This document shows, in pieces, positions 2,175 through 17,301 of a stretch of 42,215 nucleotides of DNA (within the stretch, counting starts at the first letter, position 1; each line of letters opens with the position of its first letter). A program made the translations under genes and the position numbers. The notes beneath the pieces were generated by a model. That model did no database searches. It worked only from the letters and a program-made list of their open reading frames with translations, and was not told the DNA's origin. Source of the DNA: Verrucomicrobiota bacterium. GTDB taxonomy: Bacteria; Verrucomicrobiota; Verrucomicrobiia; Verrucomicrobiales; DEV007. Where the stretch lies: NCBI GenBank assembly GCA_045046875.1, contig JASFYY010000034.1:1-42215 (forward strand), written 5' to 3'.

Positions 2175-3041
2175 ATGCCAGCAAGCAGAAACAGTCCCGA
2201 CTTCCTCATCATTGGTGCGATGAAATGCGGCACCACCACGCTGTATCACGACCTGCTGTGCCATCCCAATATTTTTCTACCCGACAAAGAATCTAACCTG
2301 CTGCTCACAGCTTCACCGGCAGAGGCCTATCAACAAGCCTACCAAAAATCTACTCCCGACCAAATCTGTGGTGAAGTCTGCCCTGACTACAGCAAACTGC
2401 CCGACCAAGCGGAAGCCGTATCGCATGCCAAAAAACTTTTTCCCGATCATCCACCCCGTCTCATCTATCTGATCCGCGAACCGCTCGCCCGCACCCTCAG
2501 TCACCACCGTTTTGTCAGCACCCGTCGTGACACCCGCTTCCCGACCATGCCCCCCGACATCAACCTCTGCCTGAACCAGCATCCGCAACTGCTCAACTAC
2601 AGTCGCTACGCGATGCAACTCAAGCCCTGGATCGAAGCCTTCGGCAAGGATGCCCTGCTAGTCATCCGCTTCGAGGACTACATCAAAAATCGCCAAACCA
2701 CACTCAAGCAAATCACCCGCTACCTCGATTTGCCAAACCTGCCCGCCCTCTCCCATCCTGATCAAATCCACAACGCCGCTCAGTCACGCCCGGTATTAAC
2801 CACCGGCTGGCAGCGCTTCATCACCCATGCTTTCTACCGCCGAGTGGTGCGCCCCATTCTAAACCCCGCCCTGCGCGAAAAATTAAGGCAGCTCGTCTTA
2901 CCTAAAGCCACAGAACAATGCATCCCCCCCACGATTCAAACCCAACAGAACATCGTCGATCAGCTCCGCAGTGATACAGCTGAGCTCCAAACCTTACTCG
3001 AACTCGATGCTCCTCTCTGGCCACCCGCCGCAACAAAATGA
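2175..3041 (+). CDS. PAPS-dependent sulfotransferase
   Basis: 5'-PSB motif PDFLIIGAMKCGTTTL; KE; 3'-PB LIYLIREPLARTLS; IRFED. Confidence 0.9.
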   Translation: MPASRNSPDFLIIGAMKCGTTTLYHDLLCHPNIFLPDKESNLLLTASPAEAYQQAYQKSTPDQICGEVCPDYSKLPDQAEAVSHAKKLFPDHPPRLIYLIREPLARTLSHHRFVSTRRDTRFPTMPPDINLCLNQHPQLLNYSRYAMQLKPWIEAFGKDALLVIRFEDYIKNRQTTLKQITRYLDLPNLPALSHPDQIHNAAQSRPVLTTGWQRFITHAFYRRVVRPILNPALREKLRQLVLPKATEQCIPPTIQTQQNIVDQLRSDTAELQTLLELDAPLWPPAATK

Positions 3042-4480
3042 TCACCACCGGCCAAGCCACTCTAGCCTACCGCTTCGGCACACTTAGCCTCACGCTGGTT
3101 GCCATGGCTTTCACCCTGGCGGCAAGCTTTGCAACGCACGACCACGTCTTCACCGCAATCGGCCTATGGGCACTGGTCATCGTCTTGCTGCCACCCAGCC
3201 TCATCCCCCGCTACGACCTCTTCTCGCCGTGGTCTTTTGTCATTCTAAGCGTGCTGATCGGCCTCACCTTGCGAGGGTTTTATATTGCCTTCCACTATCC
3301 TGATCCGCCAATCATCGACCACCTCTTCCTACGCGGAAAACCTCCTTCCTATTTTGTTTATCCCGGCATCATCCTATTGATGGGACTGAGCGCCTTAAGC
3401 GCAGGTTATTGCTGGAACCCGATCAAAAACAAGGTCCCTACCATCTTAGCGCCGATCCAAAAAAATCGGCTCTACCTCCTTGTCGCCGCCATCCTCTTGA
3501 TCTCTCTGATCAGCACCATCCTCTATATTATTCTCACCGGCGGCTTGGATTCCCGTTTCATCTCCGCCAAACGCACCCCGATCCCCGGCCTTGATCTGGT
3601 TGGGAAAAATTACCAATCCTACGGCAGTTTGCGTTTCCTCTCCTCACTCGCCCTGTTTGCCCATCTGCTCGTTCTTGGCGACTTATTAAAACCCAAAACA
3701 AACGGGCTCGCTTGGAAAATCCCCCTAGCGCTATTTTTATTCCTGCTGGCTTGCAGCCTGCCTTTTTACGCCAGCATCCGTAGCACCATCGTCAACAACG
3801 TCATCCTCTCGGCCGCCGTTTTTTATTATTCCTGCAAAAACTTCCCCATCCTGAAGTTCACCATCGCCGGACTCGCCTTGGTTATCGCCATCTACTTCAT
3901 GACCCTGCTCAGAGCCGAACGCAATGACTCAAATGCCTTGGCGAAATTCAATCCCGGCAGCCAGGCCTTCAACTCCCTCATTCTCAATCGCAATCAAATC
4001 GAACTGGCCAAAACCTCCCACATCATCCAAGCCATCCCTGAAAAACTCGATCATCAATACGGCAAAACCATCGCCCTGTGGCTGATCGCCCCGATCCCGC
4101 GCAGCCTGTGGCGAGACAAACCGCTGATCCAACCCGGCCCCATCATCGGCAATAAAATCTACGCACAAAAACGAGCCGGAGTACCTCCCGCTTTTGTCGC
4201 CGAAATGTACTGGAACTTTCACCTACCCGGCGTGCTGATCGGCGGCCTGTTGCTGGGAATATCCCTACGCTTTCTCCATCAACGTTTTCAACCGCTGCGG
4301 CAGCAAGGAGAGGCCGCGCCCGCCGCTATTTTCCTCTACGTCGCCGCCCCGATGATGTTCGGCTACCAGGCCATCAGCAGCAATCTCGGTTACGCCCTGT
4401 TCTGGTTATTGATGAATTTTCTCATCGCCACCCTGATCCTGAAAATCATCGCGCCCGCAGCCAAACCCAGCGTCACTTGA
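3038..4480 (+). CDS. Wzy-like polysaccharide repeat-unit polymerase
   Basis: About 11-12 hydrophobic segments; periplasmic loop YGKT...IPRSLWRDKP; E.Y.NF motif; 4-bp overlaps with both neighbours. Confidence 0.8.
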   Translation: MITTGQATLAYRFGTLSLTLVAMAFTLAASFATHDHVFTAIGLWALVIVLLPPSLIPRYDLFSPWSFVILSVLIGLTLRGFYIAFHYPDPPIIDHLFLRGKPPSYFVYPGIILLMGLSALSAGYCWNPIKNKVPTILAPIQKNRLYLLVAAILLISLISTILYIILTGGLDSRFISAKRTPIPGLDLVGKNYQSYGSLRFLSSLALFAHLLVLGDLLKPKTNGLAWKIPLALFLFLLACSLPFYASIRSTIVNNVILSAAVFYYSCKNFPILKFTIAGLALVIAIYFMTLLRAERNDSNALAKFNPGSQAFNSLILNRNQIELAKTSHIIQAIPEKLDHQYGKTIALWLIAPIPRSLWRDKPLIQPGPIIGNKIYAQKRAGVPPAFVAEMYWNFHLPGVLIGGLLLGISLRFLHQRFQPLRQQGEAAPAAIFLYVAAPMMFGYQAISSNLGYALFWLLMNFLIATLILKIIAPAAKPSVT

Positions 4481-5598
4481 TGAATCACCTCCTGCACAGC
4501 GTCGATTCCCTTGCTCGCGCCAACGGAGGCCTGCCCTTGGCGGTGTGCGGACTCACCAGCGCACTCGTGCAAACAGGACAAACCCATGCTCTAAAAATAA
4601 GCCTCATTTCCAGCAAAACCGATCTGCCCAGCTTGCCAACTCAACAGCTGGATTTGATCACCACCGACAACTGGATCGAACAACTACAGACCAGCCACCA
4701 GCAGCGGCCGATCAGTCTGATCCATCAACACGGCCTATGGGTGAAGTCAGCTCACACCACCTCCACCTTCGCCGGCAAAAACAGGATCCCCATCGTCATC
4801 TCCCCTCACGGCATGCTCGAACCCTGGGCACTCCAACACCATGCCTGGAGAAAAAAACTGGCGCTCACTCTTTATCAAAAACGTCACCTCAAACAAGCCA
4901 CCGCCCTCCACGCCACCTGTGAAGCCGAAGCCCAACACATCCGTGAACTCGGTTACACGCAACCCATCGCCGTCATCGCCAACGGCGTTACCCTACCCGA
5001 ATCCATCCAGAAAAAAGAGCCTTCGGGAAAACAACGCAGCGCCCTCTTCCTCTCCCGTCTGCATCCCAAAAAAGGCCTGCCGATGCTACTCGAAGCCTGG
5101 GCAAAAATCCGCCCACTCGATTGGAATCTCATCATCGCCGGCAATGATCAAAACGGCCACCTGGCAGAATTAAAAAAACAAAGCCAACAGCTCGGCCTGT
5201 CATCCCAAGTCACCTTCCCCGGCCCCCTCTACGACGAGGCCAAAGAACAAGCCTTCCAGCAAGCCGACCTCTTCATCCTGCCCAGCCATTCAGAAAACTT
5301 CGCCATCGTCATCGCCGAAGCCCTTGCTCACCAGCTGCCTGTCATCACCACCCGTGAAACTCCCTGGCAAATCCTCGAACAACAAAACTGCGGCTGGTGG
5401 GTCGAAGCCCAAACCAATACCATCGCCACCGCCTTAAAAAACGCCACCGAACTTCCCGCCGCCGAACTCCAGTCAATGGGACAATCCGGACGGGAACTGG
5501 TCGCCGAAAAATTTCTCTGGCCAAAGGTCGCCAAACAGATGTTATCGTTTTATCATTGGCTCATCGACGAAGATGATCGCCCCGACTTCGTTATTTAA
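4477..5598 (+). CDS. GT4 family glycosyltransferase
   Basis: HQHGLW, SPHGML, LFLSRLHPKKG, PSHSENFAIVIAEALA (E-x7-E). Confidence 0.92.
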   Translation: MMNHLLHSVDSLARANGGLPLAVCGLTSALVQTGQTHALKISLISSKTDLPSLPTQQLDLITTDNWIEQLQTSHQQRPISLIHQHGLWVKSAHTTSTFAGKNRIPIVISPHGMLEPWALQHHAWRKKLALTLYQKRHLKQATALHATCEAEAQHIRELGYTQPIAVIANGVTLPESIQKKEPSGKQRSALFLSRLHPKKGLPMLLEAWAKIRPLDWNLIIAGNDQNGHLAELKKQSQQLGLSSQVTFPGPLYDEAKEQAFQQADLFILPSHSENFAIVIAEALAHQLPVITTRETPWQILEQQNCGWWVEAQTNTIATALKNATELPAAELQSMGQSGRELVAEKFLWPKVAKQMLSFYHWLIDEDDRPDFVI

Positions 5599-5601
5599 AA
5601 A

Positions 5602-6189
5602 ATGACCGATCTCAGCACATACGACAATCATCACTACGACCCCGGTCCGCTGCCGCGCCGGATATTTTGGTATATCGTCAGTCGACTCTTTTTCGAAACC
5701 CGCCTGCCCTGGCCCTACACCATCAAAAGAAGCCTGCTCGCCCTCTTTGGCTGCCACTTACGCGACGGCCTGATCATCAAACCCAATGTCAAAATCAAAT
5801 ACCCCTGGTTCCTCGACATCGGCACCCACTGCTGGATCGGCGAAGGCGTCTGGATCGACAACCTCTGCCAGATCACCCTCGGTGACCACGTCGTGCTCTC
5901 CCAGGGATCCTATCTCGTCACCGGCAACCACGACTACAAAAAAAGCAGCTTCGACCTCATGCTCGACCCGATAGAAATCAAATCCGGCACCTGGGTCGCC
6001 GCCAAAAGCATCGTCTGCCCCGGCGTCACCATCGGAGAATGCGCCGTGCTGACCACAGGTTCCGTAGCAAGCAAATCCCTAGACAGCCACGCCATCTACA
6101 CCGGTAATCCCGCCACCCTCAAACGCAAACGCCCCCAAACTTCAACTATTCAGGTTTTCACCAGCCGTCTTCGGAAAAAATCAGACTAG
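5602..6189 (+). CDS. wcaF: WcaF-family polysaccharide acetyltransferase (left-handed beta-helix)
   Basis: LL.LFG, IKPNVKIKYPWFL.IG.HCWIGE.VWIDNL, SQG.YL.TGNHDY, GNPA. Confidence 0.88.
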   Translation: MTDLSTYDNHHYDPGPLPRRIFWYIVSRLFFETRLPWPYTIKRSLLALFGCHLRDGLIIKPNVKIKYPWFLDIGTHCWIGEGVWIDNLCQITLGDHVVLSQGSYLVTGNHDYKKSSFDLMLDPIEIKSGTWVAAKSIVCPGVTIGECAVLTTGSVASKSLDSHAIYTGNPATLKRKRPQTSTIQVFTSRLRKKSD

Positions 6190-6339
6190 ATCGCGGATAG
6201 CGCAGATAGGCGCGGATGGGATGAATTGTTTTTATAATTTCGCTATAAATTATGCGGCTTAATTTGAAATTTGAGTCGTCACTTGTTTGAAACTGAATAT
6301 TTTTTATCTTATCCGCGTTCATCCGCGCTATCCGCGGTT
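6189..6339. mobile_element. MITE-like 151-bp element bounded by inverted family-A repeats
   Basis: Left arm 6189-6217 (reverse complement ATCCGCGCCT ATCTGCGCT ATCCGCGATC) matches right arm 6311-6339 (ATCCGCGTTC ATCCGCGCT ATCCGCGGTT); AT-rich interior; no transposase. Confidence 0.6.
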
Positions 6340-6396
6340 GAACTCTTTTGAACTGGATTGTATAAACCTGAATAGTTACCTTCAACTCAAACCTAA

Positions 6397-7260
6397 ACCC
6401 TTCCCGCCATCCGCATCCCACACCCCATCATCATCGTCGGTGCCCCCCGCTCCGGCACCACCCTACTTGGCAAACTCTTCGCCGCCCATCCCGACGTCGC
6501 CTACTGGGAAGAACCGCGCACCGTCTGGAGCACAGGAAACCAAAACCTACCCGACGACCTGCTCAACGAAAAACATCTCACCACAAAAATCGCCACCGAA
6601 ATTGACCAACGTTTTTCCGCCTTCCTCCAGCAAAACGACAAAACCCGCTTCGCCGAAAAAACCCCGTCCAACATGCTGCGCATCCCCTTCATCCACGCGC
6701 TCTACCCCGGCTGCAAAATCATCCACCTCCACCGCGACCCGCGACCCGTGATCGCCTCTGCCCTGCGCATGCTCAACTCCCCACCCGACCTCAATCGCAT
6801 CACCGCCCGCGCCCGCGAAGCCAAACTGCGCGACTGGCCAGGCCTAAGCGCCCTACTTTTCCGCGACACCCTCGCCCGCCTCTTCCGAAAAGGAAACAAA
6901 CCCTTCTGGGGCCCCCGCCCGCCCGGTTGGCAAGACTGGTTAAACCTCCCCCCAGTCACCATGCTCTGCAAACAATGGTGCGCCCTCATCCAAACCGCCC
7001 AACACGACCTGCAACAACTCCCCCCCGATTCCTGGTTAGGACTCCGCTACGAAGACCTGTTAAAAAATCACAAAAAAACAATACCTAACCTATTAGAATT
7101 CGTCAACCTCCCCCCTTCCAGCGAAGTCACTGACTTAGCCAATAAAACCATCCAAGTAGAAAAAAATGATGCTTGGCGTCAAACTTTACCCTCAGAACTT
7201 CAACACGAAATAGAAGCTGAAACAAAAACTATTCTCAACGATCTCCGCTACAACCTCTGA
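6397..7260 (+). CDS. Second sulfotransferase; open frame with no canonical start before the PAPS motif
   Basis: The frame of ORF 6673..7260 is open back to TAA 6394-6396 and encodes PIIIVGAPRSGTTLLGKLFAAHPDVAYWEEP...FAEKTPSN; the 3'-PB motif HLHRDPR.VIAS follows. The ORF-track ATG at 6673 would omit the 5'-PSB motif. Confidence 0.8.
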   Translation, partial: TLPAIRIPHPIIIVGAPRSGTTLLGKLFAAHPDVAYWEEPRTVWSTGNQNLPDDLLNEKHLTTKIATEIDQRFSAFLQQNDKTRFAEKTPSNMLRIPFIHALYPGCKIIHLHRDPRPVIASALRMLNSPPDLNRITARAREAKLRDWPGLSALLFRDTLARLFRKGNKPFWGPRPPGWQDWLNLPPVTMLCKQWCALIQTAQHDLQQLPPDSWLGLRYEDLLKNHKKTIPNLLEFVNLPPSSEVTDLANKTIQVEKNDAWRQTLPSELQHEIEAETKTILNDLRYNL

Positions 7261-7286
7261 GTAATGATATTCACCCCCACAACAAA

Positions 7287-7517
7287 TCACTCATCTTCCT
7301 GCTCTCCTCGATAATAAGGCGTGAGAATATCAATAGCCCCCTGATAATCGCAGTCATCCATCACCCATAGTTCCGGTAAAACCGTATCCAACGGAGTCGT
7401 CCCTTCCGCCGCCGAGATGCAGTCATTCTTAATCAAAGTGCTGATCCCATTGCTCTCCAAAATCGACTGGAAAAAACCAACCTTCTCCTGCTTCCAACTC
7501 TCAAACACCTTCCTCAT
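7287..7517 (-). CDS. DUF2007 / putative signal-transducing small protein
   Basis: QSILESNGI.TLIKND...PELWV.DD.DY..A..IL pattern. Confidence 0.8.
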   Translation of the reverse strand: MRKVFESWKQEKVGFFQSILESNGISTLIKNDCISAAEGTTPLDTVLPELWVMDDCDYQGAIDILTPYYRGEQEDE

Positions 7518-7530
7518 CTTATTATATCCC

Positions 7531-7657
7531 CTCTCCCCTCTTTCTTATTCGACTCCTCCCTCTTTTCTTATCCGTATTTCCCTCTCCCTCTTTCTTATTC
7601 GTGTTCATTAGTGTCCATCTTGACTCGCCTTAGCACTAGCGGCGGCGGTTCGTGGTT
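7531..7657 (+). repeat. Three ~21-bp direct repeats running into an interrupted family-A repeat
   Basis: CTCTCCCCTCTTTCTTATTCG (7531-7551), CTCCTCCCTCTTTTCTTATCCG (7553-7574), CTCTCCCTCTTTCTTATTCG (7582-7601); ATTCGTGTTC ATTAGTGTCC AT[30-nt insert]TTCGTGGTT (7597-7657). Confidence 0.75.
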
Positions 7658-7668
7658 CTCCTCTCCCC

Positions 7669-8343
7669 TCAAAGCTCCTTGATCCTCACATTCCGATACC
7701 AAAGTTTCTTCGCCTCATCCTGAAACCCCAAGTAACCCATCGCCGGTTTCCCCTTCGCTTTGGTCGTCGACAAATCCGCATCGATCACCTGCACTCCGTT
7801 CAACACCACCTTCAGCCGGTTTCCCTTGGCCGTCACGGTCAGGCGGTTCCATTCCCCCGCAGGTTTGGTCACGTTTTTGGTCGGCCCCACCGCCCCAATC
7901 AAACCACCCGAATCATGGGGCGTGATCGCTTCAGGTTTCCCATAAGTGTCCAGAATCTGCACCTCCATGCCCGACTTCACCGGATCCTCCAGACTGCCCA
8001 CCCGAAAAAACAAACCACTGTTACCGGTCGCCTCGTATTTGTATTCCAGATCGATGATAAAATCCCCATACTGTTTCTCCGACCAGATATACGACTTGAA
8101 GCGCTGCCACCCCTTTTCCCCCGGCCTCGGTTTCAACGCCACCGTGCCATCCTTTTCCACCACCCAGTTGCCTTCCGTTTTCCAGCCACTTAGATCCTTG
8201 CCATTGAACATCGACACAAAACCATCGTCATCCTTGTCCGCCGCCCACAACTGCGCGAGTCCCACGGCCAACAACAAAACCACACCAGCCAGAACTGATC
8301 CGCCTACTTTGCCCACATTTTTATAGCTCAGAGTTTTTTTCAT
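7669..8343 (-). CDS. DUF1080 (3-keto-disaccharide hydrolase-like) secreted protein
   Basis: GFVSMFNGKDLSGW, YGDF...LEYK...NSGLFFR, EVQILD, GEWN, GYLGFQD...YRNVRIKEL; start moved to ATG 8343 (signal peptide). Confidence 0.9.
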   Translation of the reverse strand: MKKTLSYKNVGKVGGSVLAGVVLLLAVGLAQLWAADKDDDGFVSMFNGKDLSGWKTEGNWVVEKDGTVALKPRPGEKGWQRFKSYIWSEKQYGDFIIDLEYKYEATGNSGLFFRVGSLEDPVKSGMEVQILDTYGKPEAITPHDSGGLIGAVGPTKNVTKPAGEWNRLTVTAKGNRLKVVLNGVQVIDADLSTTKAKGKPAMGYLGFQDEAKKLWYRNVRIKEL

Positions 8344-8404
8344 TCTATCACAATAACACAAATTTGAGGCACACACCCCAAAAAAGAGATACCCTGTCGA
8401 GCAC

Positions 8405-9166
8405 ATGAAAATCACCATCATCACCGTTTGCAAAAATGCAGCCACCACTATAGGTGGCTGCATTCGCTCGGTGCAGCAACAGAGCCATGATGATGTCGAA
8501 CACTGGATCATCGACGGCGCATCCGATGATGGAACTCTAGAGGAAATCAAGTCCAGCGGTCACCCTGAAGAATTCCTCATCAGCGAAGCTGACAGCGGAC
8601 AATATGAAGCGATGAACAAAGGCCTCGCTCTCGCCGCTGGTGACGTCATCGGCTTTCTCCACGCCGACGATCTCTACGCCAACCCACACGTGCTAAAAAG
8701 TGTGGCCACCACCCTACAGGATCAAAACACCGACGCCTGTTACGCCGACCTGACCTATGTCGATCCCAGTAATCTCGACCATATCATCCGCTACTGGAAA
8801 TCAGAAGACTACCAAGCGGGCCTATTTCTCAAAGGCTGGATGCTACCCCACCCGACTTTTTTCGCCCGCCGCACCATTTACCAAGAGCTCGGCAACTTCG
8901 ACCTCCAATTCACCATCGGTGCCGACTGGGATCTGCTGCTGCGCTTCATCGAAGTCAATCAAATCCGCACCCAATACGTGCCTGAACTTTGGATCCAAAT
9001 GCGCACCGGCGGAGTCTCCAACCGCAGCCTGTCCAATATCATCAGAAACAACCGCCAATGCTGGAAAGCCTTCGCTAAAAACAAACTCCACCCCAGCCCC
9101 ATCTACCCCTTCTACAAACTCTATCACCGCCTATCCCAGTTCACAAAAAAAACTCCAGACATCTAG
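8405..9166 (+). CDS. GT2 family glycosyltransferase (WcaE/WfgS-like)
   Basis: KITIITV..N, IIDGASDDGT, SEAD.G.YEAMNKGL, FLHADD, PHPTFF, GGVSN. Confidence 0.92.
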   Translation: MKITIITVCKNAATTIGGCIRSVQQQSHDDVEHWIIDGASDDGTLEEIKSSGHPEEFLISEADSGQYEAMNKGLALAAGDVIGFLHADDLYANPHVLKSVATTLQDQNTDACYADLTYVDPSNLDHIIRYWKSEDYQAGLFLKGWMLPHPTFFARRTIYQELGNFDLQFTIGADWDLLLRFIEVNQIRTQYVPELWIQMRTGGVSNRSLSNIIRNNRQCWKAFAKNKLHPSPIYPFYKLYHRLSQFTKKTPDI

Positions 9167-9171
9167 CCTCC

Positions 9172-10344
9172 TCACTCCCCTCCAGGGCTTGCCACCCGAA
9201 CCTCTTCGATAATCTCCCGCCCCTTCCATAAACGCTGAGAACCTTCATCTCTCGCCGACAGAATGCTTCGACCCGTTGTATATAGCACCTCTCCATTAGG
9301 TGAAATATCAAAATCCCCCACTCCAGAAAACAACACCTCACCCACTCCAGACTGTGCACTTACTTTAATCAATTTCCAACTCGAAGGAAAAATAGATTCC
9401 CCCTCCCGTTTGGCATCGTAAGCCTTCAATTGAATCAAGCGCCCCTTGATCCAAGCATGCCGCATATCAACTTCTTTGTTCATTCCCGATGCCGAAGTCT
9501 GCAAAGATTCCTTGGCAAAAATCTGCGTCATCATCTCTAAAAAACCATAGGCAGCTTTCAACAAGCGAAAAGGAAACAATACAAAGTCCTTTAGAATTTC
9601 TAAAGGAGACGCCGAGCGCCCCCCGACCTCATAATCCCTACGGATGCAATAGAGATTGCCCGCATCATCCACTTTTGGTGACAGATAATCATAACGTTCA
9701 TCCGACAAAATCGTCTTTTGAGTTTTCCCATCAAGATCCACCTTTTCAATAGAAGATGGTCCCAAACCTACATGATAACCCGCTTGATTTCTACCGATTC
9801 CTGCGCTTTGATAAACAAAACAGTTTTTTTCACCTGGCACCCAAGAAGGAGATTCGTCTGCCGAATCTCCTTCTGTCAGGAAATCGCAATCAAAACGTTC
9901 ACAACTCAGCAAGGCTATATTTTTCACTGCATCCTGAGCAATAGCGCAAAGCAATTTTGCTTCCCTTGGGTGATGGTCAAGGTCACTTGCCAAAAAGTTT
10001 TCCTTGTGAAAAATCCGGCGCTCTGACTGTTCCCTTAAATCATAACGAAACAATCCGCCCACTGCTTCGGTCGTCAGAATATAATAAACCTCATCATCTT
10101 TGAGTCCCATTGCAGCGCTCTGAATACGTATTTGCTCTCGTGGGTTACCATCCTCAGGCACATTCCAAATATTTAGGGCAAACATCCCTTGCTCCGGCCG
10201 AGTTTGGTTTTTCCACTGATTTTTTTCTCGTAATTTCTCTCCCCGCTCAACCACCTTGGCTCCAAAATCACTATCTATTTCCACCGCATCTCCCTCACCA
10301 TCTTTAAGAAATAAATGACCGTTGCTAATATAGAGGTGCTTCAT
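9172..10344 (-). CDS. Hypothetical protein with TolB/PD40-like beta-propeller repeats
   Basis: LTEGDSADESPSWVP, YDYLSPKVD, DFDISPNGEVLY; ATG 10344 preferred over TTG 10362; more AT-rich than neighbours. Confidence 0.65.
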   Translation of the reverse strand: MKHLYISNGHLFLKDGEGDAVEIDSDFGAKVVERGEKLREKNQWKNQTRPEQGMFALNIWNVPEDGNPREQIRIQSAAMGLKDDEVYYILTTEAVGGLFRYDLREQSERRIFHKENFLASDLDHHPREAKLLCAIAQDAVKNIALLSCERFDCDFLTEGDSADESPSWVPGEKNCFVYQSAGIGRNQAGYHVGLGPSSIEKVDLDGKTQKTILSDERYDYLSPKVDDAGNLYCIRRDYEVGGRSASPLEILKDFVLFPFRLLKAAYGFLEMMTQIFAKESLQTSASGMNKEVDMRHAWIKGRLIQLKAYDAKREGESIFPSSWKLIKVSAQSGVGEVLFSGVGDFDISPNGEVLYTTGRSILSARDEGSQRLWKGREIIEEVRVASPGGE

Positions 10345-10449
10345 AAAGTAGAGTGTATTCAATAGGCCTCACAGCAATGAGACTAACACTAGGAATTTTA
10401 CAAAACAGCAAGGCTGTAGGTCAATCATCGAATCCAATAAAAACCCCCC

Positions 10450-11913
10450 TCACCCAAAAACCTCCTTGATCACTTCCCCTCCGAAGTTCGTCGGGATCTC
10501 ATCGCGGTTATTGTGTTTGTAGGTCAACTTGTATTGATCCAATCCCAGCGCATGCAACATCGTCGCATGGAGATCCGAAGGCGAGACCGGACGTTCAACC
10601 GGAACGTAACCCAGATCGTCCGTCGCCCCTATCACCTGCCCGCCCTTCACTCCACCTCCAGCCATCCACATCGTGTATCCGGCAGGCGAATGGTCTCGTC
10701 CCCTTTTATCACGTGCCGGACTGCCTTCCGTAGTTGGCGTGCGACCAAATTCCCCGCCCCACACCACCAGCGTTTCTTCCAACAAACCCCGCTGTTTCAA
10801 ATCCTTCAGCAAAGCTGCGACCGGACGATCAGTCGCTTTTGCCCGTGCCAGATGGTTGCTCTTCAAACTGCCGTGTGCATCCCATCCTCCATTTCTCAAC
10901 TGAATACACCGCACCCCTTTTTCTATCAACCGCCGCGCGGTCAAACATTGCCTGCCAAACTCCGCACAAGCCTTGTTATCCAAACCATAAAGCTCACGGG
11001 TTGCCTTTGATTCAACCGACAGGTCAAAAACTTCTGGTGCCGATGATTGCATCCGGTAGCCCAATTCATAAGAAGCGATCCTCGCCTCCAACTCTGAATC
11101 CTGGCCAATTTTATTCAGATTTTTTTCATTCATCCACTTTATAAATTTCAATTGCTGCCGCCTTTTGCCTCCGCTGTAACTCTTGGGCATTTGAGTATAG
11201 GGAACGCCCGCCTTGCCATCGACCAAAGTGCCCTGGTAACGCGAGGGAAGAAAACCCGGCCCCCAACCGGGTCGCTGCGGCGCCGGCCCTGATGAATTCG
11301 AAAGCATCACTACAAAACCGGGCAAGTTGCGGCTCTCACTGCCCAAACCATAAGTCATCCACGCCCCCATGCTCGGACGGTCGCCGATCGGCGAACCGGT
11401 CAAGGCAATGCACTCCCCCGGACCATGCACGGGAATGCGGTGATTCATCGAGCGGATCACGCATATATCATCCACACAGCGCGCGGTTTCAGAAAACAGT
11501 TCAGACACTTCAATGCCACTCTCCCCGTATTTTTTAAATTTGAAGGGAGACGCCATCAATTTGGAGTTCACCCCCGAACGAGGAATCTTCGGAACATTAA
11601 CCGCAATGCTCTCAGGCACCGGCTGTTCGTCCAGTTTTTGCAACAAAGGTTTGGGATCCCAGGTGTCCGTTTGGCCAGGACCTCCACTCATATAGAGAAA
11701 AATAACATTTTTCGCCCGCGCCGGAAGGTGAGGTCCACCTGGCAGTGCCCGGGGACTTTCTGCGGCAGATAACAACCCGTCATCAGCCAACATCGCCGTC
11801 AGTGCCACCGAACCAAAACCCAGCGTTCCCTGTTGCAACATGGCGCGCCGAGTCAGCTGCTGCTTGAACATCGAACCGGCATAATGATCAACATCGTTTT
11901 TCATAATATTCAT
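10450..11913 (-). CDS. DUF1501 protein (Tat-type signal)
   Basis: [62 protein letters not shown]. Confidence 0.95.
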
Positions 11914-14900
11914 GGGATATAAACAAACTCATTCACATTCAATAAAGCCAGGCAAAGACGAACCAGAGCATCCTCATGCTCTGCTTTTACAACATCCAGA
12001 AAGGCCTTGCCGCTCTTCAACTCCTCCGCATCCGGCCTCCTGCCCAAGGTTCTGAGGAATAATATCTCAACTTGCGAGTCAAGCTCAGCACCCGCCAAAC
12101 TCTTCACTTTGTCTGCCAAAGCCTGTGCCCGGTGTGACATGAATTCGCTGTTCAGCAAATACAAAGGCTGCAGCGCCACCGTCGATACCCCACGCGCCGA
12201 ACAACTGGACACATTCTCCGGACCATCAAACATCTTCATCACCGGCGGCATCTCACTGCGCCGCTGGGTGAGATAAACCGTGCGCCGCAATTCGCTCTCC
12301 TCACGTTCCACGGGAATACTCGGCCCGCCAATTGTGACATCCAACTCCCCCGTTGCCACTAACACCGAATCGCGAATCGCTTCCGCCTGCAAACGGCGCC
12401 TCGGCCAATTCCACAACAAACGGTTTTCAGGGTCGAGGGCGGCATTTTTTGAATCATGTTTGCGCACTTGCTGATAGGTACTCGACATCACGATCAAACG
12501 GTGAATGTGCTTGCTGCTCCATTGATGATCCATCAATTCCGCCGCCAACCAATCCAACAAACGAGGATGAGTGGGTTTGGCTCCCTGGGTTCCAAAATCA
12601 CTGGCCGTCGAAACGATGCCCTCTCCAAAATGATATTGCCACAAGCGATTCACCCACACCCGTGACACCAAAGGATTGGCTGGACTCGCCATCCAGTCAG
12701 CGAGAGCCACCCGCGGCCTTTCCCCCAAAGAGTCCGGAGTCTTGCCCAATACCACCGGCCAGCCGCTATCGAGCTGAGGCCCGGGTTTGGAAACATCTCC
12801 ACGGATAAGCAAGCGCGCACGCACCTGTTTTAATTGCTCTGGCTGATAGTGAATCGGATCACGGTTCACTACCGGCATACGGGTCACCCCGCCATCTCCT
12901 GTCGCCGGTGAATAAAAACCCCAGGTATGCGCTTTTTCACTTTCAGCAAACAAACCTCTTTTAACCAACTTCTTCGCTTCACGCTGATAAAAGGCATAAG
13001 CACCCTTGGACATCCACGACTCGAGATCCCGTGGGGCATAAGCTTTTGCAGTCTGCAATGACAGGTTTCCCAACTGCCCCTTCACAAAAAAGGCCTGCAA
13101 ACGATAATAATCCCGCTGACTCAAAGGGTCAAACTTATGGTTATGGCACTGGGCACACGCCATCGTCAAACCCAATACCGCGCTGCCGGTCGCATTCACC
13201 ATGTCCACCAACACGTCATTGCGCTGCGCCGCTTTATCCATGTTATTGCCGCTGATCCGCGCCGCCGCAAGGAATCCGGTGGCAATGATATTTTCATCCG
13301 CATAAGGCTGCATTTCATCCCCGGCGATCTGTTCTTTCAAAAAACGATCGTAAGGTTTATCCCGGTTAAAACTATCAATCACATACTCCCGGTAACGCCA
13401 GGCAAAAGGGCGCGGGATATCATGCTGGTAACCATGACTCTCCGCCCAACGCGCCAGATCCAGCCAGTAACGCCCCCAGCGTTCACCGTAGTGCGGTGAG
13501 TCCAGCAATCGATCGACCAATTTTCGATAAGCTTCCGAAGAGCTATCATTCACAAAACGCTCAATCTCCTGTGCTGTCGGTGGCAGCCCGATCAAATCCA
13601 GGGACAAGCGCCGGATCAAAGTGCGCCGCGAAGCTTCACCCGCAGGCATGATCCCTTTCGCTTCTTGTTTGGCGGCAATGAAAACATCCACCGCAGTCTT
13701 CACCCAGGTTTTGTTTTCCACCTCCGGCACCAGCGGGCGCGACACCGCTTGAAAGGCCCAGTGATCTGACTTCCCATTAGGCTCTGGCAACAGCTTGTCA
13801 TCCCACTGAAACCCCTGGTCGATCCATGCCATCAACAAGGCGATTTCCCGCTCGTTCAAAGCTTCTCCCTCCCCGTCAGGCGGCATAAGTTTTTCAACAT
13901 CTTTAGCCGCCACATGTTCGATCAATTTGCTCTCAAGACTTTTCCCCGGCACCAACAAAGGCTCCCCCGTGCTGAACCCAAGCAGCTCACTTTTCACATC
14001 CAGTCGATACCCCGACTCGGGATTCTCTCCCTTGTGACACTCAAAACAACGCTTCTTCAACAAGGGGAAAACGTCCCTTGCAAAATTTACCGGCTGATCC
14101 CAGGCCTGGGCTGGCAGGCGCAAATGGCTCTTTGTCAGTTGATCATCCTGCTCAGGTGACGCTGGATTCAACACCCCCTCCCAGCTGCGACTCAAAACCA
14201 GATCATTGACAAAAATCTGATCACTTTTTTCCGTCTTGCGACCAGTCGCAAAACCCACCCATCTGACAAAACTCACACTGCGTGGATGTTTGATCGAAGC
14301 CGCCGGTTGATCCAGATCCGCCAATTGGGGGTCCACCCACAAAGCAAGCTGATCATAATCCGCCCGGGGTGAATCCTCACTTTTACGCAAGCGCGCCACC
14401 ACTTGATAACTCCGCCCTCGTTGCAGTTCCACCGTGCTCCAGGCCGTATGACTCGGCCCGATGCGAACGATGAACACCACCTTGCCCTTTTTCGGCCCCT
14501 GATCCGCCACGTGTATGCCAATGTTCGGCACGTGATCCCCGTGAGTCGCCCGGTCTCCGCCATCAAGCCGGTCCAACCACATCACAAAAAACTCACTCTG
14601 ATCTTCAGCCTTCTTATCAGGATCATAACGAAACTGAAAACGCACAAACAACTCCCGTTCTCGATAAGATTGCGCTAATTCCCGCCGCATCGGATTATTG
14701 CGCCGCGTCGTCCCACTGATCAACACCTCGCGACCTTCGCCCTCGGCATCCACCAAAGTCGCAGGATTCAGCGCCGATAATCTCCACGGTGCCCGCCAAC
14801 CATAACCCGACTTATCCGGAACCCCTGCCGCACCATCAAAAAAATCACCCGCCACCCTATCCTGCCCAAACGCCCCAATCGAGACCGCAAGAAAAAGCCC

Positions 14901-14960
14901 CAAGGTCAACAAAGGTATCAGCGCCCGTCCTACTCTCATAACTCTAAAATCACTCATCAT
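11910..14960 (-). CDS. Planctomycete cytochrome c + PSCyt2 (DUF1549) + PSD1 (DUF1553) protein with an extra N-terminal beta-rich domain
   Basis: Heme motifs CFECH and [68 protein letters not shown]. Confidence 0.95.
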
Positions 14961-14962
14961 TT

Positions 14963-16624
14963 TTATTCTTCCCCCTTCACTTCCACCACCGCTTCCACCG
15001 CAGCCGACAAAGTTTTAGCTACGCTGAACCCATAAACCAACAATTCGTCACTCACTTCGGTGTAAAGACCCATGCGCAGCCCAATATAACGAAATTCAGC
15101 CGTGCCACCCTTTGATCTCTCCGGGCCCACACTACTCGCATCTGGTTCAGGCTCACTTCCTGCTCCCACCACAGGATCCACCCACAGCGCAATCCTTGCT
15201 TTACCCAGCTTTTCATCCCAGACATAGTGACCCGCCAATACAAACTCCTCGCCATCCACGGGGCGCCCAGCGATCGCCACATGCTCACGATGCAAGCGGG
15301 CAAAGTAGCGACCCTCTCGAATGCCAATCGTAGGCACATCCGTATGCGTAGCATCCTCGCGTCCGTGCACATCAATCCACAGAGCAAAAAAATCCTTGTC
15401 ATCCAAACCTCGGTAACGCGCACGAATAGCAAAATAATAGTCATCTGGCAAAACCTCCGCCAACTGACGCCTCACCCGGTTAGCCACAGAAGGTTCAGCT
15501 TTAGCCCTCCCCCTAACCAACAAATAGCCTCCCGCCTTCTCCTTACCTGAATGAGATCTAATTGTCGGAATCATCCGGGTGAAAGCATGATCGATCATCC
15601 ACGGATTTTTACCAAAGCCCATACCCCACAGAGTCCCATCTAAAACTCCTCGCCCCAAGGTGAAATCCTGCCAGGCAATTTTTTCTCCACCACTTGCAGG
15701 TTTATAAGCCAGCGCGCCTTTCGGTTTTAAATTTCCAGATGAATCCCCCAGGTCATTCTTACCCGCAATCGCCAATAACTGCTCCAAAGCCGGTGGCTCG
15801 ACAAACAAAGACGGATCGTTCTCTATCTCGCTGCCTGCAATCGCATTCGCGACAAAGCGCCGCGCCTGCCCTTCCACTAACAACTCCCCTCCCTTTTCAC
15901 CTTTCCCCTTCACCGAAATTTCTCCCTCGAACACATGCACATCGGTGTGCCCTTGTCCATCCACCGATGTTGCAAAACGTGTTCCCAAATCGACAATTTC
16001 AATCTCCGGAGTGATCAGTTTAAAACCAATCGCCTCCTCTGGTGCATAGGCACTCACCTTGCCATGAATGACCCTCACTTCTTGCTCGGACACTAATTCC
16101 ACAGTTGCCGGCCCCTCTAATGCCAACCCGGCATTGCCGTTCATCGCCAGACGCGCGATGCCTGATTTTACCCGCAAAGCCGCTCCACGTTCAAAAGGGT
16201 GACCAAAAAAATGCACCTCTCCATCACTTGCCTGCCAAATGCAATCCTCACTATCGATCAACACCGCAACGATATCTTTTTTCACGTCTACCCCCCCTGT
16301 CCTCTCATCTAATCCCATCACTGCCAGCACCCCCAATAACAAAGTCACACAAGCCGCCAGCATCAATCCCGCACCAGTGAACATCGACGACATCCTACTC
16401 TTTTCATGCCCAGAAAAATCAATCACCCGATCACAGTCAACCTTCCCCTTGCCCTGAAGATTGAGCTGACAGGATAACATCTCATCCATTTCCACCATAT
16501 CCAAATATCTGACAATGCGAGCCTCATCCCCCTTCATCCCCTCACCCAAAGACCGCAAAGTCTCTCCAGACTGATCCCCGTCCAAAACATCCCTCAACAA
16601 ACTGTCAAACTCCTCGTTTTTCAT
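14963..16624 (-). CDS. FecR-like transmembrane anti-sigma factor with a C-terminal sensor domain
   Basis: N-terminal helical domain, single TM (LMLAACVTLLLGVLAV), FecR motifs LEGPA, IVDLGTRF, DVHVFEGEI; overlaps the sigma gene by 4 bp. Confidence 0.88.
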   Translation of the reverse strand: MKNEEFDSLLRDVLDGDQSGETLRSLGEGMKGDEARIVRYLDMVEMDEMLSCQLNLQGKGKVDCDRVIDFSGHEKSRMSSMFTGAGLMLAACVTLLLGVLAVMGLDERTGGVDVKKDIVAVLIDSEDCIWQASDGEVHFFGHPFERGAALRVKSGIARLAMNGNAGLALEGPATVELVSEQEVRVIHGKVSAYAPEEAIGFKLITPEIEIVDLGTRFATSVDGQGHTDVHVFEGEISVKGKGEKGGELLVEGQARRFVANAIAGSEIENDPSLFVEPPALEQLLAIAGKNDLGDSSGNLKPKGALAYKPASGGEKIAWQDFTLGRGVLDGTLWGMGFGKNPWMIDHAFTRMIPTIRSHSGKEKAGGYLLVRGRAKAEPSVANRVRRQLAEVLPDDYYFAIRARYRGLDDKDFFALWIDVHGREDATHTDVPTIGIREGRYFARLHREHVAIAGRPVDGEEFVLAGHYVWDEKLGKARIALWVDPVVGAGSEPEPDASSVGPERSKGGTAEFRYIGLRMGLYTEVSDELLVYGFSVAKTLSAAVEAVVEVKGEE

Positions 16625-17199
16625 TCTTCACTCAAATCCCATTCGTGTTTTTTAGTGTTCATTCGTGGTTCCACACATTTCACCAACCCCTGACGCGCCC
16701 GGTACAAAGTCATCGAAATCGCATCCACCGAGCGTCCCATCAAAGCCGCGATATTAATCACCGATGCCCCCTCCATATAACGCAACTCCACCATCCGCCG
16801 CTGCCCCTGCGGCAACTTCTTGATGCACCCATTCAAGACCTCCAAGCGCTGTTCAAAACTCTCACTGCGCAACTGCGCTTGTTGTGAGATCTGCTCCACC
16901 AATTCTTCATCAAAAGGAACCCATTGATCCTTATACTGCTTTCTAAGATGAACCTTCACCAGATTGGCAGCGATTCCACAAGCCCAAGCCATGAATTTCT
17001 TCGTCTGATCAAATTCTTCCCGCTTCCGCCACAACACCAAATTGGTCTCTTGCAGCACATCGCTCGCATCCGCCTCACGCGGTAACAAACTACGAATCAA
17101 AGTCCGCAAACCCGGCTGCGCCTCGGTCACCAACACCACATAGTGCTCGTTCCCATCTCGATTCGACAATGAATTTTCCTCTGATTTTGATCCCGACAT
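16621..17199 (-). CDS. ECF sigma-70 factor, Rhodopirellula/Verrucomicrobium (TIGR02989-like) family
   Basis: DASDVLQETNLVLWRK...F.AWACGIA; L..CI.KLP..QR..VELRY; ISMTLYRARQ.L.KCVE; ATG 17199 (alternative GTG 17211). Confidence 0.92.
   Translation of the reverse strand: MSGSKSEENSLSNRDGNEHYVVLVTEAQPGLRTLIRSLLPREADASDVLQETNLVLWRKREEFDQTKKFMAWACGIAANLVKVHLRKQYKDQWVPFDEELVEQISQQAQLRSESFEQRLEVLNGCIKKLPQGQRRMVELRYMEGASVINIAALMGRSVDAISMTLYRARQGLVKCVEPRMNTKKHEWDLSEE
16641..16670 (+). repeat. Family-A three-unit repeat inside the 3' end of the sigma gene
   Basis: ATTCGTGTTT TTTAGTGTTC ATTCGTGGTT; the minus strand encodes (E)PRMNTKKHE(W). Confidence 0.75.
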
Positions 17200-17301
17200 A
17201 ACAGCTCTCACTGTATTCTTTACAAAAATCGGATAAATCTAACGCTCTTTTTTCATTTTTTTTCGCCGCGTCAAAAAAACGCAGCTAAAACACCCTGCAC
17301 T

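Follow-up and report, generated by a model that had tools for sequence, protein, structure and literature searches.

The DNA analysed here, a window of 42,215 nucleotides on contig JASFYY010000034.1 of a Verrucomicrobiota bacterium (GCA_045046875.1), raises the question of why an anti-sigma factor and the cytochrome encoded next to it should carry the same domain, and whether the two copies recognise the same ligand. Four genes are tightly packed at this locus: those for an ECF sigma factor, a FecR-like membrane anti-sigma factor, a PSD1-type cytochrome c protein and a DUF1501 protein (Table 1).

Table 1. Features of the cassette and of its upstream region, with window coordinates.
Feature	Position	Strand	Basis or remarks
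Candidate ECF promoter	17219..17243	-	-35-like GTTAGATT at 17236-17243, 11-nt spacer, -10-like TGTAAA at 17219-17224
ECF sigma factor, TIGR02989 family	16621..17211	-	Pfam Sigma70_r2/r4_2
FecR-like single-pass anti-sigma factor, 553 aa	14963..16624	-	Pfam FecR, E 1.5e-5, above cut-off
FecR-type beta-domain of the anti-sigma factor	15845..16270	-	Gly214-Thr215 within DLGT
Anti-sigma C-terminal domain, residues ~316-546, sensor-type subfamily	14987..15679	-	Predicted ConA/L-lectin beta-sandwich
PSCyt1-PSCyt2-PSD1 cytochrome c protein, 1016 aa	11910..14960	-	Pfam PSCyt1, PSCyt2, PSD1 above cut-off
PSD1 protein N-terminal domain, residues ~36-262, effector-type subfamily	14175..14855	-	Predicted ConA/L-lectin beta-sandwich
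DUF1501 protein, 487 aa	10450..11913	-	Pfam DUF1501, E 1e-144

The sigma factor scored 156.2 bits against TIGR02989, above the curated cut-off of 124.55, and the true start of its gene is possibly the ATG at 17199. Sigma stop and anti-sigma start share 4 nt, the PSD1 gene starts 2 nt past the anti-sigma stop, and PSD1 stop and DUF1501 start again share 4 nt. A single hydrophobic segment at residues ~84-105 appears in the hydropathy profile of the anti-sigma factor. Its FecR-type beta-domain (Pfam FecR above cut-off; weak profile match to the anti-sigma structure 4m0n, E 0.05) contains a DLGT motif of which D, G, T and the next F do not vary across the 12 anti-sigmas aligned. The Gly-Thr pair in this motif resembles the GT self-cleavage site of FoxR and may, by analogy, be equivalent to it. 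The PSD1 protein has a signal-like hydrophobic stretch at its N-terminus, judged by hydropathy, and two CxxCH motifs (14034-14048 and 13143-13157); the N-terminal sequence of the DUF1501 protein is of the twin-arginine type. The locus has all four elements of the PSD1/DUF1501 module, namely PSCyt1, PSCyt2 and PSD1 with a DUF1501 gene next in line. TonB-receptor families of Pfam were matched by none of the 32 proteins scanned in the window, and the DUF1501 protein had no meaningful match among PDB sequences. Scans for sigma-70 promoters and terminators stayed at shuffle level.

The anti-sigma factor's C-terminal domain and the N-terminal domain of the PSD1 protein are homologous. The initial annotation had aligned them collinearly by eye and proposed pairwise and HHalign comparisons, which confirmed the alignment as significant. 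BLASTP gave 49 identities in 178 positions (28%, E 9e-12), the Smith-Waterman score was 131 as against 33.5 +/- 5.3 (maximum 56) in 1000 shuffles, and HHalign of the two subfamily alignments returned a probability of 99.6 and an E value of 1.4e-24 over 222 columns. All of the motif pairs read by eye are present in the translations, and the global alignment places them in register. The source genome has 14,712 ORFs, of which only these two contain the domain. Neither copy matched a Pfam or NCBIfam family, and a profile search of PDB sequences was without a match up to E 10.

In twenty-one columns one residue is shared by 75% or more of the members of each subfamily. At four of these (PSD1/sensor) the residue is much rarer in 85 copies of neither type: Y112/Y404 (98/100% vs 6%), T243/T522 (100/100% vs 15%), E244/E523 (98/95% vs 26%) and N89/N382 (100/86% vs 49%), a contrast that is inflated because the 85 copies are more diverse (mean identity 32% vs 42-44%). 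Other conserved positions are unlike between the subfamilies (H150/R436, P90/R383, T84/R373 and I164/F441), and the residues common to both types are mostly family-wide, recurring in single-domain PEP-CTERM proteins. Both domains retain conserved polar and aromatic residues and are therefore not the generic spacer that had been considered as the counter-case.

AlphaFold2 modelled the PSD1 domain with a mean pLDDT of 95.0 and the anti-sigma domain with one of 90.6, and likeness of fold was judged by matching each model separately to solved structures. The PSD1 model matched calnexin 1jhn with Z 16.4 (rmsd 3.1, 193 aligned), calreticulins and sialidase lectin domains tying with it within 1 Z. 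For the anti-sigma model five top structures were tied at Z 14.6; its superposition on glucuronan lyase 2zzj had an rmsd of 3.2 (188 aligned) and that on calnexin 1jhn one of 3.5 (199 aligned). Both domains are predicted to be ConA/L-lectin beta-sandwiches of the two-sheet jelly-roll kind, in agreement with the lectin-like sandwich suspected at the outset. ESM Atlas neighbours fall into polysaccharide-lyase-like and sialidase-CBM clusters (score 0.94-0.96), which is a lead only. A predicted ConA fold in common in itself says nothing of function. Many families are tied structurally.

The sensor-type domain was found at 19 loci, and at 18 of them a PSD1 gene with the effector-type domain follows directly. 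At the nineteenth (G093) the sigma/anti-sigma and PSD1/DUF1501 pairs lie on separate contigs, and the PSD1 form is co-present in 19 of 19 genomes or contigs with the sensor form. The cassette occurs in two phyla, Verrucomicrobia and Planctomycetes, and is carried by the complete genome of Kolteria novifilia Pan216 (L152). The domain is rare, these queries matching ~2-7% of the sampled genomes: the sensor query matched 20 of 301 order-level genomes, and the PSD1 form was present in 9 of 401 Planctomycetota. None of 61 PSD1 genes adjoining other sensor families possessed it. The 17 clade sigmas form a single branch among 206 (FastTree, SH 99), and the 19 loci count as one origin because all of them descend from this one sigma clade. 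For sixteen domain-bearing PSD1 genes the genome yielded no such sensor. One such copy (G167) is 61% identical to that of the window, and a Planctomycetota locus (G1108), at which no sigma pair was detected, has kept the PSD1/DUF1501 pair and a number of shared neighbours. The PSD1 domain is conserved even in the absence of the sensor and so has a role independent of it. A by-eye reading of the neighbours of the cassette revealed no conserved glycoside hydrolase or lyase gene.

The element upstream of the sigma gene may function as the promoter of the cassette. Its octamer GTTAGATT lies upstream of 9 of 11 clade sigmas as against 4 of 188 other sigmas, and it is present at 4 of 5 further Planctomycetota loci left out of the motif definition. 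The strict motif (GTTAGATT-N10-12-DGYWAA) has two matches in the source genome where 0.67 are expected (three shuffles); around the second (C6) there is no ORF of >120 aa within 300 nt. The 6.4 Mb of G093 contain just two strict matches, one ahead of each of the separated gene pairs, although the motif was picked out by eye with the region upstream of the G093 PSD1 gene among the sequences inspected. When gapped words were scanned automatically, the result was only 5 of 9 vs 3-4 in shuffles, and L153 and L358 lack the motif or have an altered form of it. None of the 16 PSD1 genes from genomes in which no such sensor was detected has the octamer before it (220 bases being available for one). 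Extra strict matches in the source genome (C6), in G221 (over a gene start) and in G714 and G715 (near unrelated genes) look like chance, and one more occurs in G089. A loosened promoter pattern produced fewer matches than a reversed control in five of five genomes, and none at the cassettes. The pattern of strict matches suggests that the clade sigma switches on the PSD1 gene, even where this is unlinked. Because the sensor has a paralogous domain and the motif ties the PSD1 gene to this sigma, the sensor is likely to respond to the sort of molecule on which the PSD1 protein acts.

It might be supposed that the sensor obtained its domain from the gene next to it. Identity between sensor and PSD1 copies is 24.0%, and that between sensor and other copies (PEP-CTERM) 23.7%; cognate pairs, at 23.3%, have no advantage over non-cognate pairs, at 23.4% (p 0.62 by permutation). 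In domain trees (FastTree, SH-like support, midpoint root) the sensor copies cluster with the second domain of three tandem-domain PEP-CTERM-type secreted proteins (SH 99) and the PSD1 copies branch on their own (SH 100). Within a single chain, three secreted proteins (P0034, P0036 and P0041) combine a copy of the effector-like type with a sensor-like one. Many of the 140 domain matches are PEP-CTERM or other secreted proteins, and the Pfam PEP-CTERM model matched 31 of 69 aligned domain members. Recent copying from the neighbour at the window locus is rejected on the tree grouping and the lack of excess cognate identity. Judged by their sequences, the sensor and PSD1 copies are old paralogues that belong to different subfamilies.

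The survey of other cassettes used 208 dereplicated sensors, of which 177 lie outside the clade and have a downstream gene. A domain family common to sensor and downstream gene was found for 5 of these 177, strongly for 2, and among PSD1-adjacent sensors outside the clade for 3 of 58 (1 strongly, 2 weakly). When 102 sensors in 100 loci were chosen on FecR score alone, none matched its neighbouring PSD1 protein by BLAST; one of them (L045) did so weakly by family HMM. A single generic LamG-like family makes up 109 of 228 sensors. Two further independent recruitments of neighbour-like sensor domains were detected, at 43-48% and 62% identity: in C49/L028 a LamG-type sensor is placed among effector-type domains, and in L166 a DNRLRE sensor is 62% identical to the next gene, which encodes a PEP-CTERM protein. 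Sensor-effector pairing is real yet uncommon, and it does not amount to a general code. The initial annotation had expected accessory domains of sensors and neighbouring PSD1 proteins to match across genomes, through a swappable domain copied into both; neither the rarity of such matches nor the identities of cognate pairs agree with this.

Several known systems resemble parts of the cassette. The available text of PMC7826278 describes ECF46 anti-sigmas of Planctomycetes and Verrucomicrobia with ConA-like (Laminin_G_3) domains as proposed carbohydrate sensors. Like these, the window anti-sigma is encoded at +1 and has one membrane helix, a FecR domain and a (predicted) ConA-like outer domain. 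The latter, however, belongs to an unnamed ConA-fold family with no Laminin_G_3 match at E 0.01; ECF46 promoters are described there as not conserved, whereas the window clade has a conserved motif, and that text does not mention the domain sharing with a neighbouring effector seen here. PMC3542564 and PMC5615132, in the parts available, report the PSCyt1/PSCyt2/PSD1 and DUF1501 module with accessory domains of carbohydrate-binding type and ascribe no function to it. The gene pair and domain order are those of the window, but its accessory domain is not in the published list as far as available, and the words 'FecR' and 'sigma' are absent from the main text of PMC3542564. In Clostridium thermocellum, according to PMC4711584, the GH10 sensor of RsgI6 is 57% identical to the regulated xylanase Xyn10D and binds polysaccharide. 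There too the outer domain of an anti-sigma is paralogous to a domain of the regulated protein. The sigma-I/RsgI system is an analogy only, since the window pair is of the TIGR02989 and FecR-like types; moreover, the window paralogues are far more diverged (28%) and the predicted target is a haem protein. [quoted passage not shown] An ECF sigma, a FecR-type anti-sigma with GT and a C-terminal domain homologous to the N-terminus of the regulated partner are common to both. In the window the small STN is replaced by a ~230-aa all-beta domain, ConA-type in the model, and the next gene encodes a PSD1 cytochrome (18 of 19 loci) rather than a TonB-dependent transporter. Our literature search turned up no publication in which sensor and effector of such a cassette share a domain, the group descriptions of PMC7826278 being covered in part.

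The explanation that we tentatively prefer, while granting that it could well be wrong, is one of matched sensing, in which the anti-sigma binds the kind of ligand bound by the cytochrome copy and frees the sigma factor to transcribe the cassette. The outer domain of the anti-sigma and the PSD1 protein would both be periplasmic, the former binding a ligand, probably a glycan or sugar acid, and the homologous domain of the cytochrome the same kind of ligand. Release of the sigma factor may proceed by FecR-type self-cleavage and proteolysis, with transcription from the predicted promoter, and the PSD1/DUF1501 pair would carry out redox or hydrolytic chemistry on the ligand. As the copies are old paralogues of different subfamilies, their ligands may be related, as substrate and product are, and not identical. 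It is conceivable, though on balance doubtful, that the domains are unmatched: each gene of the operon would have taken up a common secreted-protein domain long ago, and the sensor, although its sigma factor would still govern the cassette, would answer a cue other than the ligand of the cytochrome. The promiscuity of the domain among secreted proteins, the separate branches, the lack of excess identity between the two types and the 16 PSD1 genes found without such a sensor are all in accord with this. It fits less well that so rare a domain stands in two adjacent genes and has been kept in both across two phyla, that four positions are specifically conserved in both types, and that two further lineages have neighbour-derived sensors.

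A third reading, which we regard as rather improbable, dispenses with a free sugar: the anti-sigma domain would bind the cytochrome domain directly and report the presence or state of the cytochrome. The layout is that of PupR and FoxR, for which binding between homologous domains has been shown (PMC7186176, PMC11637429), three secreted proteins hold both types of copy in one chain, and the sensor form is always accompanied by the PSD1 form. However, the PSD1 domain is strongly conserved without the sensor in G167, and G1108 retains the PSD1/DUF1501 pair with no sigma pair found. Moreover, the shared residues, being mostly family-wide, fit a ligand site or fold core better than a partner interface. 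Prediction of a complex between anti-sigma residues 115-548 and the PSD1 domain twice scored 0.00, the mark being 0.32, with unfolded controls, and weighs on neither side of the question of binding. That one domain, copied into sensor and effector, sets specificity across cassettes in general is very unlikely. The three independent lineages (the window clade, C49/L028 and L166) speak for such a code, but it is largely refuted at the sequence level by the scarcity of shared families outside the clade, PSD1-adjacent sensors included, by the 102 FecR-chosen sensors with their one weak HMM match, and by the dominance of one generic LamG-like family.

These bacteria are very rich in DUF1501/PSD1 pairs, the source genome alone having 55 PSD1-like and 69 DUF1501-like ORFs. 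The initial annotation had hoped for a handle on their substrates; as a general rule this does not stand, but for one DUF1501/PSD1 subfamily the clade is a usable handle. Its candidate promoter could be placed in a reporter, its two domains are small and well modelled for ligand screens, and Kolteria novifilia Pan216 is a named carrier. A positive result would hold for this subfamily and for a small number of independent cases but not for every cassette. In a wider sense it is possible, if less than probable, that in both phyla new sensors arise repeatedly when a FecR-type anti-sigma gains, at its end and instead of the STN, a domain taken from the secreted protein under its control, giving a transporter-independent form of signalling that reads the ligand of the effector or the effector itself. 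If so, the window cassette would be an old case common to two phyla and, because it would have a defined promoter, the inducer of the cassette would name the first DUF1501/PSD1 substrate.

The four genes of the cassette are tightly packed, with junctions that are either overlaps of 4 nt or a gap of 2 nt. The anti-sigma's C-terminal domain and the N-terminal domain of the PSD1 protein are homologous, as the initial annotation had claimed from an alignment by eye. BLASTP aligned 178 aa of the two at 28% identity (E 9e-12), their alignment score of 131 compares with 56 or less in 1000 shuffles, and HHalign of the two domain subfamilies gave 99.6% (E 1.4e-24).

Genes of the cassette (window coordinates)
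Feature	Position	Strand
ECF sigma	16621-17211	-
FecR-like anti-sigma	14963-16624	-
PSCyt1-PSCyt2-PSD1 protein	11910-14960	-
DUF1501 protein	10450-11913	-

Neither domain had a sequence match in Pfam, NCBIfam or PDB. The structure prediction that the same annotation had called for gave confident AlphaFold2 models, each resembling the sandwich of ConA/L-lectins; since the folding alignments had members in common, full independence of one model from the other cannot be assumed. Many of the model matches were tied, among them calnexin, calreticulin, sialidase lectin domains and polysaccharide lyases. When 1.84 billion representatives were searched, 140 matches were obtained: PSD1 N-terminal domains, numerous secreted proteins with just one domain (PEP-CTERM or of other kinds), some proteins with the domain in tandem, and three anti-sigmas. 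Three of five consecutive PEP-CTERM-type genes in genome G848 (L350:5634-13433) also encode the domain. When 164 domains, each at least 150 aa long, were placed in a tree (FastTree, midpoint root), the sensor copies shared a branch with the second domains from three tandem proteins (SH 99); the PSD1 copies had a branch of their own (SH 100). Domains of the sensor and PSD1 types, for which the labels of some fragments were set by hand, are on average 24.0% identical to each other, and 23.7% and 25.1% identical to other copies. The rank of a sensor's own partner spanned 1 to 15 in 15 cognate pairs (p 0.62). Sensor and PSD1 copies are as similar to other copies as to each other and cognate pairs have no advantage, so the two are old paralogues and do not stem from a recent local duplication.

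The sensor-type domain was found in 19 loci, each counted once: nine from Verrucomicrobiota, eight from Planctomycetota (including Kolteria novifilia, L152) and two on short contigs from metagenomes that differ little from L151. A domain-bearing PSD1 gene lies directly next in 18 of them, counting one split into two frames and several cut by contig ends. The split orthologue (G137, L039:3679-6741) consists of frames of 346 aa and 667 aa, reflecting either an assembly error or a real break. The sigmas of these loci fall on one branch (17 of 206 rows, SH 99); the loci therefore have one origin. Nesting of three Planctomycetota-type loci among verrucomicrobial ones hints at possible transfer. The domain is also present in 16 more PSD1 genes (14 from the order-level genomes and 2 from the Planctomycetota search) whose genomes gave no sensor of this type with our queries. 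Locus L354 (G1108) keeps PSD1 and DUF1501 and shares several neighbours with L357, L359 and L360; no sigma or anti-sigma was found there, an apparent secondary loss of the regulator.

A pattern spotted by eye lies 5' of the clade sigmas: GTTAGATT, a spacer of 10-12 nt and DGYWAA. The octamer precedes 9 of 11 clade sigmas but only 4 of 188 others, and among the loci examined the full pattern is confined to the clade. Of five Planctomycetota loci added later, four show the octamer, in these cases next to a second box that varies; it is absent at L153 and L358. Four sigmas with generic LamG sensors (L104, L124, L134, L139) also have the octamer, followed by boxes different from those of the clade, two of each kind. 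In genome G093 the sigma/anti-sigma and PSD1/DUF1501 pairs are on separate contigs, and the genome has two occurrences of the pattern, one 5' of each pair, with differing spacers (reversed control, one occurrence); the PSD1 upstream region was already in view while the pattern was being defined. The octamer is missing 5' of all 16 PSD1 genes without a sensor. Because the motif marks the clade sigmas and both G093 pairs and is absent before the sensor-less PSD1 genes, the sigma likely drives the PSD1/DUF1501 pair.

Other genes surround the cassette. Beyond DUF1501 lies a 396-aa ORF (9172-10362, minus strand) with no Pfam or NCBIfam match and no paralogue in the genome; it is absent at the equivalent place in G137, where a DUF1080-like gene comes after DUF1501. 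Sulfotransferase, glycosyltransferase and acetyltransferase genes (2175-9166, plus strand), interleaved with an opposite-strand DUF1080 gene, look like a surface-polysaccharide cluster. Elsewhere in the genome (C73:58379-62696) the gene immediately after an ECF sigma encodes a PSD1 protein of 1247 aa. Judged by eye, the N-terminal part of this protein resembles an anti-sigma domain plus membrane helix, a possible anti-sigma/cytochrome fusion.

The initial annotation had further proposed that specificity would be set by a swappable domain with copies in sensor and effector. A FecR survey covered 100 of the 150 matches listed (41 family genomes; omitted were the own genus, two loci already known and certain others), and none of its 102 sensors matched a neighbouring PSD1 protein by BLAST. 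The sample was enlarged with own-genome, GTDB and metagenome loci to 228 complete sensors (208 after 90% dereplication); it is not random, since patterns from the clade served to retrieve the GTDB and metagenome loci. Outside the clade, 5 of 177 sensors with a downstream gene share its domain family, two of them strongly; among the PSD1-adjacent sensors the count is 3 of 58. These comparisons used sequence methods, which would overlook very remote matches. The earlier interpretation holds in part; it fails as a general rule, and a general code of this kind is highly improbable. The two strong matches are independent of each other. One is a second own-genome cassette (C49:31373-36679; L028:4374-9680), in which the LamG-type sensor shares 43-48% identity with the N-terminal domain encoded by the PSD1-like gene that follows. 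Its effector family has a match in 87 of 134 family genomes; among the matches listed, a clear sensor form occurs in the own genus only (6 genomes). In the tree this sensor lies among effector-type domains, apart from other sensors and not beside its own neighbour. At the other (L166:7332-10192) the DNRLRE sensor of an anti-sigma and the PEP-CTERM protein of the next gene share 62% identity; a second anti-sigma, in L159, has 58% identity to that PEP-CTERM protein.

Precedents exist both for the individual parts and for sensors that are paralogues of what they regulate. Published work describes ECF46-type anti-sigmas with ConA-like domains (PMC7826278), which our cassette resembles in its predicted fold, and PSD1/DUF1501 modules with extra domains of carbohydrate-binding type (PMC3542564, PMC5615132). 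It also describes sensors paralogous to their targets in RsgI6/Xyn10D (PMC4711584) and in PupR/PupB and FoxR/FoxA (PMC7186176, PMC11637429), as the sensor domain here is paralogous to a domain of the PSD1 protein. Literature searches, with incomplete coverage of Planctomycete work, returned no paper on this domain, its sensor-PSD1 pairing or the motif. By analogy with PupR/PupB, sensor and cytochrome might pair directly, which we consider unlikely. It is somewhat unlikely that the two are simply unmatched domains inside one regulated operon. An identical residue is kept in both types at 21 columns, four of which are much rarer in 85 other copies, and the shared residues may line one pocket. 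Our preferred reading, to which we give a little less than an even chance, is that the sensor domain would bind a periplasmic ligand, probably a carbohydrate, of the kind bound by the cytochrome's copy, and that the sigma would be freed by FecR-type processing.
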